Shown in pieces: positions 1 through 5,944 of a stretch of DNA of 5,944 nucleotides. The position numbers were made by a program, and so were the translations under genes. Source of the DNA: a virus. Taxonomy: Duplodnaviria > Heunggongvirae > Uroviricota > Caudoviricetes. Every line of letters starts with the position of its first letter. Within the stretch, counting starts at the first letter, position 1. The notes beneath the pieces were generated by a model. The model did not search any database, was not told where the DNA came from, and saw only the letters and a list, made by a program, of their open reading frames with translations. The stretch is taken from the IMG/VR virus record IMGVR_UViG_2585427756_000006; one strand, 5' to 3'.

Positions 1-230
1 CGTAACAACTGACGCCAGACTTTACGCACACCGTATACCTTGTGATTTTCATCGTATACGCGCTGTATCTCTTTCTTCAGCCAGTCATCGCGCTGCGCAC
101 GGGCACTGCGTTTATCCGGATGATGTCGCTGTTGCTGACAGTGGTAATACGTTGACGGGGCAATATGCAGTTCGCTGCATAGCGGTCCGACCCCGTACTG
201 CTCACGCAGCTTATCCAGCAGTGGCATCAT
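1..230 (-). CDS. IS3-family transposase OrfB, N-terminal part (partial, continues beyond window start)
   Basis: Minus-strand translation from ATG at 230..228 gives [76 protein letters not shown] with no stop to the window edge; start overlaps the orfA stop in the -1 frame next to an A-run (AAAAAA), consistent with programmed frameshifting. Confidence 0.7.
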
Positions 231-553
231 TTTTTCCAGAGGCGGTCGAACTCCGCCTTCGCAAAATAAGCGGAAGCCTGGCGAAGGATATCGTTACTGC
301 GGCGCAGTTCACGATTTTCACGCTCCAGCTCTTTCAGACGCTGACGTTCAGCGGTGGTGAGCCCTCCATCACCGCCCCCGGTATCCCGCTCATGCTGGCG
401 AACCCAGACACGCAGAGTCTCCGGCGTACAGCCAATCTTTGGAGCAATGGAACAAATTGTCGCCCATTGTGAGTCATATTCGCCCTGACTTTCCAGAACC
501 ATACGGACTGCCCGTTGACGGACTTCAGGGGAAAAACGAGTATTTTTAGTCAT
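227..553 (-). CDS. IS3-family transposase OrfA (helix-turn-helix / leucine-zipper DNA-binding subunit)
   Basis: 108 aa [33 protein letters not shown]...; SD GAGGTAAACAGG directly upstream of ATG 553..551; C-terminal heptad-like region [18 protein letters not shown] typical of IS3 OrfA. Confidence 0.8.
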
Positions 554-607
554 CCTGTTTACCTCTTTCTCAGGAAGTTTAGTCTCCAGGATTCCCGGGG
601 CGGTTCA

Positions 608-770
608 CTTTGTGGTAATAGGCCAGTCAACCAGCAGGATGCGTGTAAGCGAATTTGCGGAGCTATTAGAGCTTATACAGGCATTCGGTACAGAGCGTGG
701 CGTTAAGTGGTCAGACGAAGCGCGACTGGCTCTCGAATGGAAAGCGCGATGGGGAGATCGGGCTGCATGA
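608..770 (+). pseudogene. ninB: 3' remnant of a nin-region gene (probably ninB) truncated by the IS insertion
   Basis: Open frame runs from the IS boundary with no stop ([53 protein letters not shown]), ending in TGA 768..770 that overlaps the next ATG as ATGA. No upstream start remains except an internal ATG at 639. NinB assignment is from memory of the lambda NinB C-terminus and the usual ninB-methylase gene order. Confidence 0.5.
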
Positions 771-1294
771 CTATCAAATCAAATACGCCAGCACACGACA
801 AGGACTGCTGGCAAACGCCGCTTTGGCTTTTTGATGCACTGGATATTGAGTTTGGATTCTGGCTGGATTCGGCAGCGAGCGACAAAAATGCTCTGTGCGC
901 TCACTGGCTAACTGAGGACGACGACGCGCTCAATTCTGAGTGGGTAAGCCACGGTGCAATCTGGAATAACCCACCGTACAGCAATATCAGGCCGTGGGTG
1001 GAAAAAGCCGCTGAGCAGTGTATACAACAGCGACAGACGGTAGTGATGCTTGTGCCAGAGGATATGTCTGTCGGATGGTTCAGCAAGGCTCTGGAGAGTG
1101 TTGACGAAGTTCGTATTATCACTGATGGACGGATTAATTTTATCGAACCATCGACAGGGCTGGAGAAGAATGGAAACAGCAAAGGCTCCATGCTGCTGAT
1201 TTGGCGACCGTTCATCAGTCCTCGACGGATGTTTACTACCGTATCCAAAGCGGCATTGATGGCGATCGGGCAGGGCGTCAGGAGGGCTGCATGA
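767..1294 (+). CDS. Phage DNA N6-adenine methyltransferase (Dam-like orphan methylase)
   Basis: 175 aa; NPPY catalytic motif ([10 protein letters not shown]) of N6-adenine methyltransferases; conserved N-terminal WQTP..WLFD; ATG 767 overlaps upstream stop (ATGA); SD-like GGGGAGA about 10 nt upstream. The GTG at 707 listed in the ORF track is an upstream extension. Confidence 0.8.
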
Positions 1295-1467
1295 GACGAC
1301 AGCGACGAAGCATCACCGACATAATCTGCGAAAACTGCAAATACCTTCCAACGAAATGCTCCAGAAATAAACGCAAGCTAATCCCAAAAGAATCTGACGT
1401 AAAAACCTTCAATTACACAGCCCACCTGTGGGATATCCGGTGGCTAAGATATCGTGCGAGGAAATGA
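1291..1467 (+). CDS. ninE: NinE-family protein
   Basis: 58 aa [58 protein letters not shown], matching lambdoid NinE from memory; ATG overlaps methylase stop (ATGA); SD AGGAGGG at 1280..1286. Confidence 0.8.
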
Positions 1468-1469
1468 CA

Positions 1470-1811
1470 ATGGATTATTCACAGTTAAGTGATTTTGAAA
1501 TTAACAGAATGGTAGGAGACATAATTTTTAAAGGCCTTTGGGCAAGTAAACCGGAAACATCAGGGAATAACACCAACAAATGGTATTACGGAAATGCTGA
1601 TACAACTTTTGAGCCATTAAATCATTTGCCTGACTACTGCAATGATCCGAGCGCTTCATGGCCGATTATTGAGAAATACAGGATTTCTATCTTAGACCAG
1701 TTAACTGAATGGTGTGTGGATGCAAAAGGCGTAAGCCCAATATTTGATACCAGACCTCTCCGCGCCGCCATGATTGTCTTTCTCCTGATGCAGGAGGCCA
1801 ATAATGCTTAG
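1470..1811 (+). CDS. Conserved phage protein of unknown function, NinX-like (DUF2591-type) by position and recollection
   Basis: 113 aa [24 protein letters not shown]...; SD GAGGA at 1458..1462 with 7 nt spacing to ATG 1470; sits directly after ninE as NinX does in P22-like nin regions. Family name is from memory and unverified. Confidence 0.6.
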
Positions 1812-1998
1812 CCCATCTCAATCCCTTCAATACCTGAAAGAAAGCATAGAGCGGGCTTCAATGTGCACAGAGTGGATTCTATCTAGGTTTAGCGCATACA
1901 GAAGATTGCCGGTAAAGGGCATGCCAAGCAAGTCGATGCTGCATATGCAAAAGAATGCGCGCTGGAAGGTATGGCGAGAACACAGGTTATGTGGCTAA
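1804..1998 (+). CDS. Small ORF with NinF-like N-terminus whose 3' part reads out of frame through ybcO-derived DNA (chimeric; possibly a degenerate pseudogene)
   Basis: 64 aa [24 protein letters not shown]...; near-ideal SD AGGAGG (1792..1797) 6 nt upstream of ATG 1804, embedded in the 3' end of the preceding gene. The first ~18 residues resemble lambda NinF as I recall it; the remainder lacks the Cys-rich NinF motif. Confidence 0.4.
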
Positions 1999-2021
1999 AA
2001 GAGGGGGTTATTAAGGCGTGA
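1932..2021 (+). pseudogene. ybcO: 3' remnant of ybcO-like (DUF1364 putative nuclease) gene; N-terminal coding part absent
   Basis: Frame-0 translation ...[29 protein letters not shown] matches the C-terminus of K-12 DLP12 YbcO from memory; an in-frame TAG at 1890..1892 and no start codon upstream of the homologous segment; stop TGA 2019..2021 overlaps rusA GTG. Confidence 0.5.
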
Positions 2022-2380
2022 ATACCTACAGCATCACATTACCCTGGCCTCCGAGCAATAATCGCTATTACCGCCATAATCGCGGGCGCACGCACGTCAG
2101 CGCAGAGGGGCAGGCATACCGCGATAACGTCGCCCGAATCATTAAAAACGCAATGCTGGATATCGGCCTGGCTATGCCTGTGAAAATCCGCATTGAGTGC
2201 CACATGCCGGATCGCCGTCGCCGTGACCTGGATAATCTGCAAAAAGCCGCTTTTGACGCACTCACTAAAGCAGGTTTCTGGCTGGATGATGCTCAGGTCG
2301 TTGATTACCGCGTTGTGAAGATGCCTGTTACCAAAGGTGGGAGGCTGGAACTGACCATCACCGAAATGGGGAATGAATGA
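2018..2380 (+). CDS. rusA: Holliday junction resolvase RusA
   Basis: 120 aa [38 protein letters not shown]... essentially as I recall E. coli RusA; GTG start overlapping upstream stop (GTGA); SD-like GAGGGGG at 2000..2006. Confidence 0.9.
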
Positions 2381-2517
2381 TGTTTGAGTTTAATATGGCA
2401 GAACTTCTTCGCCACCGCTGGGGGCGTCTGCGCTTATATCGTTTCCCCGGTTCTGTTTTGACCGATTACCGAATACTGAAGAATTACGCCAAAACCCTGA
2501 CAGGAACAGGAGTATGA
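2377..2517 (+). CDS. ylcG: Small protein YlcG-like (46 aa, unknown function)
   Basis: ATGATG start overlapping rusA stop; translation [46 protein letters not shown]; matches DLP12 YlcG from memory and the gene order rusA-ylcG-Q. Below the 60 aa cutoff so absent from the ORF track. Confidence 0.65.
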
Positions 2518-2602
2518 AGTCAGAGATAACAATCAACTAATACTGTTTTGTTGATTTTTGCTTGTAATTGGCGTTCTGGTCTGATTTTTGTGGAGTAAGT
2601 TG

Positions 2603-2986
2603 ATGCGTGATATTCAGATGGTTCTTGAGCGTTGGGGTGCGTGGGCGGCTAATAATCATGAAGATGTGACCTGGTCGTCCATTGCCGCCGGTTTTAAGGG
2701 ATTAATTCCTTCAAAAGTAAAATCTCGCCCGCAATGTTGTGACGATGACGCGATGATCATTTGCGGGTGCATGGCCCGTCTGAAAAAGAACAACAGCGAT
2801 TTACACGATTTATTAGTAGATTATTATGTATGTGGTATGACATTCATGTCACTGGCAAGTAAGCATTGCTGCTCGGATGGTTATATCGGGAAAAGGTTAC
2901 AGAAGGCTGAGGGCATAATTGAAGGGATGTTAATGGCATTAGATATCCGGTTAGATATGGATATCGTTGCTAATAATTCTAATTGA
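2603..2986 (+). CDS. quuD: Late-gene transcription antiterminator Q (Q82/QuuD type)
   Basis: 127 aa [34 protein letters not shown]... with Cys-rich zinc-binding region ([12 protein letters not shown]); SD GGAGT 6-7 nt upstream of ATG 2603; position immediately upstream of a terminator and the lysis genes. The TTG at 2588 in the ORF track is an upstream extension. Confidence 0.85.
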
Positions 2987-3010
2987 TATGCAATTGTTTA
3001 CTAAAAGTTA

Positions 3011-3037
3011 TTAAAAATGGGGCGTGGAAACGCCCCC
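3011..3037 (-). terminator. Candidate intrinsic terminator oriented for the minus strand (porin transcript)
   Basis: GC-rich 6 bp stem GGGGCG/CGCCCC (3019..3024 / 3031..3036) with 6 nt loop; on the minus strand it is followed by ATTTTTAA. About 140 bp downstream of the porin stop. Confidence 0.35.
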
Positions 3038-3123
3038 AAAATAAAGGGTAATATATAACAGAAGGTTTATATAGTAAGAAGCAAGGTAGTGCTTCTAAAG
3101 GAAGTGGCTTGAGGGCTCCACTT

Positions 3124-3163
3124 ATATGTTGCGGAGGCAAAGCCTCCCGCAACATATCTTTTT
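3124..3163 (+). terminator. Strong intrinsic terminator on the plus strand; candidate tR' downstream of Q
   Basis: Roughly 15 bp near-perfect stem ATATGTTGCGGAGGC / GCCTCCCGCAACATAT (one bulge) with AAA loop, followed by CTTTTT. Lies about 140-180 nt past the Q stop and 11 bp beyond the convergent porin stop. Confidence 0.5.
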
Positions 3164-3174
3164 CGTAAGTCAGA

Positions 3175-4257
3175 TTAGAACTGATAAACCAGACCTACAG
3201 CGACGATGTCGTCGGTATCAATACCAGCTGTTTTGGTAAACTTACTATCGTCAATTAAGTTGATTTTGTAATCAACAAAAGTAGACATGTTTTTATTAAA
3301 GTAGTAAGTAGCACCGACATCGACATACTTGACTAAGTCTCGGTCACCATGAACACCAAGGTCTTTACCTTTTGACTGAAGGTAAGCAACAGATGGGCGC
3401 AGACCGAAGTCAAACTGATATTGTGCTACTGCTTCAAAGTTTTGTGCTTTGTTTGCAATATGGTTATTACCAAAAACGGTCATATTCTGAGTTTCAGAAT
3501 ATGTGGTAGCCAGATAGATATTGTTCGCATCATATTTCAGGCCTGCAGCCCATACTTCCGCATTTTTGCCGGAGGCATTGAATTTGCTCTTACCATAGGC
3601 GACCTGACCGTCAGTGCGATCTGATTTAGCATAGGTTGCACCCACGCCGAATCCTTCATACTCATAAGTAGTGGAGAAACCGAAACCATCACCATTGGCT
3701 TCAGTTACGTCAGTGCGGTCATTTTTACCCTGATACTGAGCAGCAAAGTTCAGGCCATCGACCAGACCAAAGAAGTCGTTGTTACGATAAGTTGCAACAC
3801 CAGTAGTGCGACCAGTCATGAACACATCTGTTTGGGTCCAGGTATCACCACCGAATTCTGGCAGAACGTCAGTCCACGCACCGATGTCGTATGCTACACC
3901 GTAGTTACGGCCGTAATCGATGGAGCCGTAATCACCAAATTTCAGGCCTGCAAATGCAAGACGGGTTTTGTCTTTGGAAGAACCTTGAGATTCAGCACGG
4001 TTGCCTTTGAATTCATATTCCCACTGACCGAAACCAGTCAGTTGATCGTTGATTTGGGTTTCACCTTTGAAGCCAAGACGGGCATAAGTAGTATCACCAT
4101 CATCTGCATCATTAGAGGAGAAGTAGTGCTTGGCATTAACTTTCCCGTATAGATCCAGCTTGTTACTGTCTTTATTATAAATTTCAGCTGCCTGAGCAGA
4201 CATCGCCATCAGTACTGATGCAGCTACAGCAGAAATTGCCACTGTTAATTTTTTCAT
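3175..4257 (-). CDS. nmpC: Outer membrane general porin, NmpC/Lc (OmpC/OmpD family), apparently intact
   Basis: 360 aa; signal peptide [23 protein letters not shown] followed by AEIYNKD; beta-barrel porin features and C-terminal ...VGLVYQF; SD AAGGG upstream of ATG at 4257..4255. The ORF-track start at 4317 is an N-terminal over-extension. Confidence 0.9.
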
Positions 4258-4420
4258 TGTACGCCCTTTTTTTGAACTATTATTAAAAAATGATGTCACT
4301 GCGCGATAAATATTCATCTAATCAATGTGATTATTTCAAGATGTAAGTTTTAGTTTCTCATTTAATTTGTGAAGTAGATCTCTATTTTTATCTGAACCTT
4401 TTCTATCTAATCCTATTCAT
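4258..4420 (-). promoter_or_regulatory. Probable porin promoter / 5' UTR region (AT-rich)
   Basis: Minus-strand reading contains TTGAAA -35-like hexamer with plausible but weak -10 candidates 17-19 bp downstream. Exact elements not resolved by eye. Confidence 0.3.
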
Positions 4421-4683
4421 GGCTCTTGTCTGAACAAAAATAAATCTATTAGCTAATTTATATTAATGGCACTTATTTATAAGTGCTCTATAATTCTTTA
4501 GCTTAATTTAAACAAACTAAAAATAACATCGGAAATTATTAACTGATTATTTGTTGAAGTTTTCTTATGTATTTGTGGTGGTGTTTTGAACACTCGGTGG
4601 CATTCTCACAAATATCATTTAGTAGTTTACGTACGTAAAAAATTGGTTATGCTGTTAAGAGTGGTTACTTCGTCACACAGCTT

Positions 4684-4716
4684 AAACCCGCCGTCGAGCG
4701 GGTTTTTCCATTTTTT
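4684..4716 (+). terminator. Intrinsic terminator on the plus strand within the AT-rich spacer upstream of the holin gene
   Basis: Stem AAACCCGC / GCGGGTTT (4684..4691 / 4698..4705) with loop CGTCGA, followed by TTCCATTTTTT. A-run before and T-run after, so it may also work bidirectionally. Confidence 0.5.
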
Positions 4717-4845
4717 GAGTCTCGATATTAGCTGATAACCCAATACCTGAGTTATTCACTGACTCCGAATCTGTTACGTTTCTGCCTTTATTGCGATACG
4801 TAATATCCCCTTAATTTACACCCGCTTTGTCTGCGAGGTGGGGTT

Positions 4846-5061
4846 ATGAAATCCATGGATAAGTTAACAACGGGTGTCGCCTATGGCACCTCAGCAGGTA
4901 GTGCCGGTTACTGGTTTTTACCGCTGCTCGATAAAGTCACGCCCTCACAGTGGGCAGCAATAGGTGTGCTGGGTAGCCTGGTATTTGGCCTGCTGACGTA
5001 CCTGACAAACCTTTATTTCAAGATTAAAGAAGATAAGCGCAAGGCTGCGAGAGGTGAATAA
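4846..5061 (+). CDS. essD: S21-type pinholin with dual-start motif (antiholin from Met1, holin from Met4)
   Basis: 71 aa [71 protein letters not shown]; two TMDs; Met-Lys-Ser-Met dual start; SD GAGGTGGGG upstream; stop overlaps next gene (TAATG). Confidence 0.9.
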
Positions 5062-5558
5062 TGCCTCCATCATTACGAAAAGCCGTTGCTGCTGCTATTG
5101 GTGGCGGAGCAATTGCTATAGCATCAGTGTTAATCACTGGCCCAAGTGGTAACGATGGTCTGGAAGGTGTCAGCTACATACCATACAAAGATATTGTTGG
5201 TGTATGGACTGTATGTCACGGGCATACAGGAAAAGACATCATGCTCGGTAAAACGTATACCAAAGCAGAATGCAAAGCCCTCCTGAATAAAGACCTTGCC
5301 ACGGTCGCCAGACAAATTAACCCGTACATCAAAGTCGATATACCGGAAACAATGCGCGGCGCTCTTTACTCATTCGTTTACAACGTGGGTGCTGGCAATT
5401 TCAGAACATCGACGCTTCTTCGCAAAATAAACCAGGGCGATATCAAAGGCGCATGTGATCAGCTACGTCGCTGGACATATGCTGGCGGTAAGCAATGGAA
5501 AGGTCTCATGACTCGTCGTGAGATTGAGCGTGAAATCTGTTTGTGGGGTCAGCAATGA
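5061..5558 (+). CDS. rrrD: SAR endolysin (R21-type, T4-lysozyme-like muramidase, GH24)
   Basis: 165 aa; N-terminal Gly/Ala-rich weakly hydrophobic SAR domain ([20 protein letters not shown]); catalytic triad spacing E35-D44-T50 ([18 protein letters not shown]); stop overlaps the Rz start (ATGA). Confidence 0.9.
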
Positions 5559-5944
5559 ACAGAGTAACCGCGATTATCTCCGCTCTGGTTATCTGCATCA
5601 TCGTCTGCCTGTCATGGGCTGTTAATCATTACCGTGATAACGCCATTACCTACAAAGCCCAGCGCGACAAAAATGCCAGAGAACTGAAGCTGGCGAACGC
5701 GGCAATTACTGACATGCAGATGCGTCAGCGTGATGTTGCTGCGCTCGATGCAAAATACACGAAGGAGTTAGCTGATGCGAAAGCTGAAAATGATGCTCTG
5801 CGTGATGATGTTGCCGCTGGTCGTCGTCGGTTGCACATCAAAGCAGTCTGTCAGTCAGTGCGTGAAGCCACCACCGCCTCCGGCGTGGATAATGCAGCCT
5901 CCCCCCGACTGGCAGACACCGCTGAACGGGATTATTTCACCCTC
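5555..5944 (+). CDS. rzpD: Rz i-spanin (inner-membrane spanin subunit), 3' end beyond the window
   Basis: [26 protein letters not shown]... N-terminal TMD followed by a charged, coiled-coil-like periplasmic domain; open to the window edge. Confidence 0.85.
5775..5944 (+). CDS. rzoD: Rz1 o-spanin lipoprotein embedded in the +1 frame of Rz, 3' end beyond the window
   Basis: SD AAGGAG (5762..5767) 7 nt before ATG 5775; [20 protein letters not shown] lipoprotein signal with lipobox VVGC, then proline-rich mature part ([14 protein letters not shown]). Confidence 0.8.

Follow-up and report, generated by a model that had tools for sequence, protein, structure and literature searches.

An IS629 left end joined within codon 93 of ninB in a lambdoid prophage segment

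The 5,944-nt stretch of viral DNA analyzed here (the window) begins inside an insertion sequence and continues, from position 608, with genes of the nin region of a lambdoid prophage. The locus raises the question of which gene, if any, was broken by the element, how the join came about, and whether an IS at this place would matter for the late antiterminator gene Q and the Holliday-junction resolvase gene rusA. The best explanation, which we consider highly probable, is that a copy of IS629 on the minus strand has its left end joined within codon 93 of ninB, that the join originated by transposition, and that its consequence would be limited to the loss of NinB.

The IS629 end and the ninB remnant

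Over its first 607 bp the window matched, without a single mismatch (100 % identity), the IRL side of a 1,310-bp IS from E. coli FDAARGOS_1249 (L028 4317–4923), labeled by PGAP as "IS3 family transposase, programmed frameshift". Identity was 99.5 % with a copy named by PGAP "IS3-like element IS629 family" and ca. 96 % with copies named IS1203, the isoform being assigned by proxy, through the PGAP names of near-identical copies rather than by comparison with ISfinder. This segment was matched in 3,722 of the 5,426 complete E. coli genomes. The IRL (Table 1) begins with 5′-TG, as do the terminal inverted repeats of the IS3 family, and in the complete FDAARGOS_1249 copy it pairs with the IRR at 23 of 25 positions. 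The ALIL element, whose model is RF01497, scored 120.2 bits against a gathering score of 50. The window contains 46 % of IS629, and the IRR, the catalytic domain and the far flank lie outside it; the rve (DDE) catalytic region of OrfB, upstream of base 1, is encoded by copies that are identical or 99.8 % identical over the visible part (including those in L003 and L009). Because of the identity to the FDAARGOS_1249 copy, the PGAP names, the ALIL and the orfA/orfB layout, we assign the visible element to IS629, of the IS3 family. The first-pass annotation had described it as an IS3-family, IS629-like element ending at about 607 and antisense to the phage genes, and this description holds: the tip of the IRL lies exactly at 607, phage sequence starts at 608, and orfA and orfB are on the minus strand, with the nin genes on the plus strand.

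As an element, this IS does not differ from IS629 of E. coli and Shigella (isoforms IS1203 and IS3411): it shares the 1,310-bp length seen in identical copies, 25-bp inverted repeats starting with TGAACC, orfA/orfB, the ALIL pseudoknot and a nucleotide identity of 99.5–100 %, and only its insertion site is unrecorded elsewhere. It resides in a prophage, where IS629 is mostly found in O157:H7 genomes (62 % of copies; PMC3271280). A longer IS, suggested by a BLAST match reaching 612–614, was discarded as a chance similarity of the flanks.

Table 1. Coordinates of the features identified in the window.
Feature	Coordinates	Strand	Basis or remark
IS629 left (IRL-proximal) part	1..607	-	607 bp of the 1,310-bp element; remainder upstream of the window
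orfB 5′ part, ca. 76 codons	1..235	-	Frame translation; open after the A-run to base 1
ALIL pseudoknot, programmed -1 frameshift signal orfA/orfB	156..272	-	Rfam RF01497, full-length match
orfA, 108 aa, DNA-binding transposase subunit	227..553	-	Pfam HTH_Tnp_1, E = 6e-13
IRL, 25-bp terminal inverted repeat TGAACCGCCCCGGGAATCCTGGAGA	583..607	-	Sequence reading; outermost base = 607
ninB 3′ remnant, 163 nt	608..770	+	Third base of codon 93, codons 94–146, stop
dam, phage N6-adenine methyltransferase, intact	767..1294	+	Pfam Dam, E = 2e-65
ninE	1291..1467	+	Pfam NinE, E = 3e-40
ninX	1470..1811	+	Pfam Phage_P22_NinX, E = 7e-17
64-codon ORF	1804–1998	+	No Pfam family
rusA, Holliday-junction resolvase	2018..2380	+	Pfam RusA, E = 7e-23
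ylcG	2377–2517	+	
Q (QuuD-type), late antiterminator	2603..2986	+	Pfam Phage_antitermQ, E = 7e-54
Porin gene, antisense	4257..3175	-	
Holin, lysozyme, Rz start	4846–5944	+	

The IS tip, ...CCCGGGGCGGTTCA, stops exactly at 607 and phage sequence picks up at 608. In relatives, the empty site reads ...GCCGGGAATGG/CTTTGTGGTAATAGG (or, in a longer reading, GCCGGGAATGG/CTTTGTGG; the slash indicates the break), and in the window the GGTTCA tip is joined directly to CTTTGTGG. The break falls after nt 278 of ninB, within codon 93, with the IS tip abutting the third base of this codon. The remaining phage segment, 608–770, corresponds to positions 97–131 of the 131 positions of the Pfam NinB profile (PF05772, E = 1e-11); its 53 residues were identical (53/53) to residues 94–146 of the NinB encoded by the intact gene of L005, a prophage from GCA_964038535.1, and showed one substitution with respect to the same residues of lambda NinB (PDB 1PC6; E = 4e-29). 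Loci L001–L010 contain an intact ninB of 441 bp (146 codons) at the same place. The region 608–5944 as a whole was 100 % identical to the L005 prophage and 99.98 % identical to several others, and ninB was intact in all of these relatives.

The position of the remnant also agrees with ninB, which in the relatives is found in the order ren-ninB-dam. Its frame is open from 582 to a TGA at 768–770 that overlaps the dam ATG at 767–769 (ATGA, 767–770), and dam has its own Shine-Dalgarno-like sequence, GGGGAG, at 751–756. The complete ORF of ca. 146 codons is reduced here to codons 94–146, and this 53-codon tail cannot make NinB; 608–770 is thus a remnant of ninB and not a functional member of the family. 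In the lambda-like prophage, ninB is the gene for the Orf recombination mediator. An open frame from the junction with a stop coupled to the methylase gene had been noted before, together with the proposal that an insertion had split a gene, probably ninB. The gene is indeed ninB, cut in codon 93, while the simple insertion implied by that proposal is one of two readings discussed below. Many loci lose homology at 608, which gave this position the appearance of a mosaic boundary; this candidate was dropped as an artefact of the query, from which the 5′ part of ninB is missing.

Gene calls, made from an ORF listing and Pfam scans of the window, gave downstream of the remnant the string dam-ninE-(ninX, ybcO remnant)-rusA-ylcG-Q, which contains the previously described dam-ninE-rusA-Q order, and a search for tRNA genes in the window found none. 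The window is, by its gene content, a segment of a lambdoid prophage in which dam and all genes down to Q are intact. The segment from ninB to trkG is found, with 95–96.5 % identity, in ET745 and ETEC H10407, and the flanks in ET745 complete a full phage, exo-bet-gam-kil-cIII-N-cI-cro-cII-O-P-ren-ninB-dam-...-Q-porin-lysis-trkG-terminase. Relatives and window together thus point to a prophage layout ...O-P-ren-ninB-dam-ninE-ninX-rusA-ylcG-Q-porin-lysis-trkG and, given the arrangement in ET745 and H10407, a pR operon running through ninB to Q fits this phage type.

Occurrence and origin of the junction

The same junction was found in one IMG/VR contig, UViG_2606217117_000010, which was 100 % identical to window 297–5944 and also starts inside the IS, further in than the window. 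The exact junction was not covered at any place in the 5,426 complete E. coli genomes, and was likewise absent from INPHARED phages, GTDB representative genomes and JGI metagenomes. When the 52-aa and 43-aa ORFs of the ninB tail were used to look for identical proteins, only phages with a point-mutated ninB or contigs starting inside ninB were retrieved. We therefore take the junction to be strain-specific, since it is absent from the complete E. coli genomes; because it is also absent from the phage, GTDB and JGI sets, the two records that contain it may be assemblies of one and the same strain.

Past window position 5944 (L031 5648), and inside Rz, the IMG/VR contig departs from attLambda-type relatives (L005 and others) and continues with Rz, a Rac-like trkG, a homologue of the ParB-like ynaK, a TET-associated glycosyltransferase-family protein and the terminase small subunit. 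We interpret position 5944, from these comparisons, as a mosaic joint located in Rz. Among the complete genomes, 723 show the lysis-Rz-trkG arrangement.

Both records begin within the IS, the junction occurs in no complete genome, and the right end of the window, at 5944, is also a homology breakpoint, as expected of a repeat-bounded contig, which the window may be. These features would agree with an assembly artefact, that is, a chimeric contig end generated by the collapse of a multi-copy IS in short-read assembly. Nevertheless, we consider an artefact extremely improbable. We take the join as real because the break is at the terminal base of the IRL, as it should be in a transposition product, and a mis-join would not respect the IS tip. 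Moreover, the junction is the same, at 100 % identity, in two records that start at different points, and the 723 genomes show that the Rz-trkG continuation is genuine.

If the join is a product of transposition, it could be one side of a simple insertion or the border of a deletion. The upstream flank, with the other half of the IS, the target duplication and the 5′ part of ninB, is missing from both the window and UViG_2606217117_000010. For the reciprocal junction, the prediction is nt 1–278 of ninB, ending in ...GCCGGGAATGGCTT(T), and a 3–4 bp duplication, followed directly by the IRR end of IS629; a simple insertion would then carry a CTT or CTTT duplication, its left junction reading ...AATGGCTT(T) and then TGAACCGCCCCGGGTTTCC. 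This reciprocal junction (ninB 5′ part, CTT/CTTT, IS end) was not found in IMG/VR, which favors a deletion. The miss carries little weight, however, since the contigs of draft assemblies break inside IS copies and IMG/VR is limited to predicted-viral regions.

We assign to simple insertion a probability slightly short of an even chance. An IS-bounded deletion or rearrangement, which we place at the same level, would mean that the prophage segment is truncated and that IS629 marks its left edge; adjacent deletion, IS-IS recombination or IEE-promoted deletion would have deleted or inverted away the 5′ part of ninB and possibly also ren, P, O, the immunity region and N. Among independent copies of the IS629 family with both flanks visible in related prophages, two out of six have a 3–4 bp duplication and four out of six lie beside deletions. 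The four copies that abut deletions, and lack target duplications, are ea8.5/IS/O′ (L002, L003, L005 and L009), the copy in L007, dam′/IS/Rz′ (FDAARGOS_1249) and ypjA′/IS/ninB tail (O145); in the latter strain, O145 RM8988 (L029), the IS is joined to the last 39 nt of ninB. Matching duplications, of 3–4 bp, were reported at only 21 of 47 IS629 sites in O157 genomes (PMC3271280), and large IEE-promoted adjacent deletions that can leave IS629 intact are also on record (PMC9330008). Against a deletion, simple insertions with duplications also occur in the same region: CFT073 (NC_004431.1, L113) has an IS629-like element between ren and ninB flanked by a GGT duplication, and 24AR0357 (NZ_CP195351.1, L114) has an IS1203 in ninB codon 21 with a GTAC duplication, the pieces of ninB being annotated by PGAP as pseudogene fragments. 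Both strains have the gene string of our prophage (ren-ninB-dam-ninE-ninX-rusA-ylcG-quuD-porin) with an IS629-family element in or beside ninB. They differ in the site (codon 21 and the ren-ninB spacer, versus codon 93 here), in the orientation of the IS, which is sense in them and antisense here, and in that both flanks and the duplications are visible, whereas the window shows a single flank.

If the deletion reading were true, Q and the lysis genes would have lost their connection to pR and N, and the prophage remnant would be non-inducible through the deletion and not through polarity of the IS.

As a separate observation, the IS629 copy of FDAARGOS_1249 (L028 3614–4923), in the same orientation, bridges a truncated dam (to window position 1220) and a truncated Rz (from about window position 5687), with most of the content of the window deleted.

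Predicted consequences for Q and rusA

The first-pass annotation had suggested that the antisense IS may reduce Q expression and prophage inducibility, and that its location ca. 1.4 kb upstream of rusA deserved attention because of the activation of this gene by IS insertions in K-12. The distance is accurate, since rusA starts at 2018, 1,411 bp from the IS end. The proposed effects, in turn, are not supported by the sequence, and we judge it quite unlikely that the IS acts as a polar block lowering Q expression and inducibility, as an activator of rusA, or as both. Such effects are conceivable in that the expected architecture places the IS between pR and Q, and ca. 1.3 kb of the transcript crossing it would be untranslated, a potential substrate for Rho. 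In addition, no intrinsic terminator was predicted between the IS and rusA, so that any transcription reading out of the element would reach this gene. A consensus scan, which a weak promoter could escape, found no sigma-70 promoter reaching the threshold on the plus strand of 1–607; the best promoter-like match found by eye there, TTGACG-17-GAGTAT near 514–542, agreed with the consensus at 8 of 12 positions. For termination on the strand read from pR through the element, the scan of the whole IS gave two plus-strand sites, versus 1.2 ± 1.4 in shuffled sequences (not significant), and we saw no convincing intrinsic terminator: the sole terminator-like site of the full IS on this strand, a 5-bp stem at the IRR tip, is no more than would be expected by chance.

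The precedents for an effect on these genes differ from our locus. In the DLP12 prophage of K-12, the rus-1 (IS2) and rus-2 (IS10) insertions lie, as here, upstream of rusA in a lambdoid nin region, and these activating elements turn on the transcription of rusA from upstream of its coding sequence (PMC1636454). Here, instead of lying close upstream, the IS is separated from rusA by 1,411 bp and four ORFs (dam, ninE, ninX and the 64-codon ORF with the ybcO remnant), and the end facing rusA is the IRL, with no outward promoter predicted by the consensus scan. The position of an IS629 copy can also alter the induction of Stx phages, in what is the one well-studied case for a lambdoid prophage: in phiPA2 and phiPA8, IS629 disrupts an MT-A70 methyltransferase that controls spontaneous induction (PMC10810198). 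IS629 is inside a lambdoid prophage in both cases, and its position matters for the phenotype in those phages; their phenotype is, however, due to gene disruption and not to polarity, and the gene disrupted here is ninB, with the nin-region dam intact. An equivalence between the dam gene beside ninB and the rRNA methyltransferase of PMC10810198 was considered and rejected, because that enzyme is the MT-A70 protein, encoded elsewhere in the phage.

Transposition of IS629 into ninB with loss of NinB only, the reading that we prefer, would proceed as follows. The join would result from ordinary copy-out/paste-in transposition of an IS3-family element, and it leaves ninB without its first 278 nt, about two thirds of the gene, at their usual location. 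The event was probably recent, because intact copies elsewhere do not differ from the visible part of the IS, and relatives lacking the IS are 100 % identical to the phage part. In classic lambda genetics, RNA polymerase modified by N overrides the polarity of IS insertions, and this also argues against a polar block. As long as N and nutR are still present in the prophage, Q would thus be little affected, since the N-modified polymerase reads through termination signals carried by the IS. NinB is a dispensable accessory function, removed by the viable nin5 deletion of lambda. Provided that the left part of the prophage is still present, we would expect no loss other than that of NinB because of the lack of promoter or terminator support, the distance to rusA, the N-mediated read-through and the dispensability of ninB; both the neutrality of the event and the read-through are extrapolated from lambda biology. 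The nin5 deletion takes out all of ninB-ninI, terminators included, and growth becomes N-independent. The function of ninB is lost in both cases, but here ninB alone is hit and 1.3 kb are added.

IS629-family ends around ren-ninB-dam and other features of the prophage

This type of event is already known, as IS629-family insertions in or beside ninB are annotated in complete genomes with the same gene string, and many sequenced strains show prophage damage of this sort. The initial observation of an IS joined to this gene is correct and its biology is ordinary, and only the clustering of IS ends around ren-ninB-dam is mildly out of the ordinary. That prophages of E. coli decay, and its strains diversify, through insertions of IS629 and deletions bounded by it is well documented. 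The junction can serve as a strain or lineage marker, and it warns of a prophage without NinB whose left side may be truncated; it raises no fresh question on the control of Q or the activation of rusA.

At least eight independent IS629/IS1203 ends were located within a stretch of ca. 1.1 kb in the ren-ninB-dam segment of different strains (CFT073, 24AR0357, FDAARGOS_1249, O145 RM8988, and hits H125, H127 and H131). Some correspond to simple insertions (duplications GGT and GTAC) and some border deletions. Only 2 bp to the right of the insertion point in the window there is a second, independent IS629-family end, in this case an IRR in the opposite orientation, GGTTCA/TTGTGGTAATAGG, found in L014 1–140 (GCA_965255975.1, contig CBDGJG010000079.1; compare with window 596–612). 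The target contains CCGGGAAT, an 8-nt match to the IRL situated 3–10 nt to the left of the insertion point of the window; a run of this kind occurs at only ca. 1.5 % of background positions, in a comparison made after the fact. Capture of targets resembling the inverted repeats has been described for other IS3-family elements, and the two ends 2 bp apart beside this match could reflect such a process. Nevertheless, a rough expectation suggests that the clustering is not clearly beyond the known bias of IS629 for prophages, and we find it unlikely that ren-ninB-dam of lambdoid prophages is a regional hot spot for insertion of the IS629 family.

The IS629 copy at L005 4080–7659 (GCA_964038535.1) measures 3,580 bp instead of 1,310 bp. 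The difference is due to an ORF inside its orfB, which encodes reverse-transcriptase and group II intron maturase domains, and the enlargement resembles the insertion of a group II intron into the IS.

Three other features of the nin and lysis regions were observed. Just upstream of rusA, a weak 3′ remnant of ybcO (DUF1364) was found at 1929–2015, out of frame with the 64-codon ORF (tblastn, 48 % over 29 aa, E = 4e-4); the same remnant is annotated by PGAP in ET745 and CFT073, and it represents a scar left by recombination between ninX and rusA. About 140 nt past the stop codon of Q, the plus strand contains a strong bulged hairpin (3124–3163; -21.9 kcal/mol, z = -5.9) followed by CUUUUU, which was missed by the consensus terminator scan and is probably the tR′-type terminator on which Q acts. 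Lastly, the antisense porin gene located between Q and the holin gene (3175–4257) is intact, with 360 codons, and of the OmpC/NmpC type, and DLP12 likewise carries an antisense porin gene, nmpC, between Q and the holin gene.
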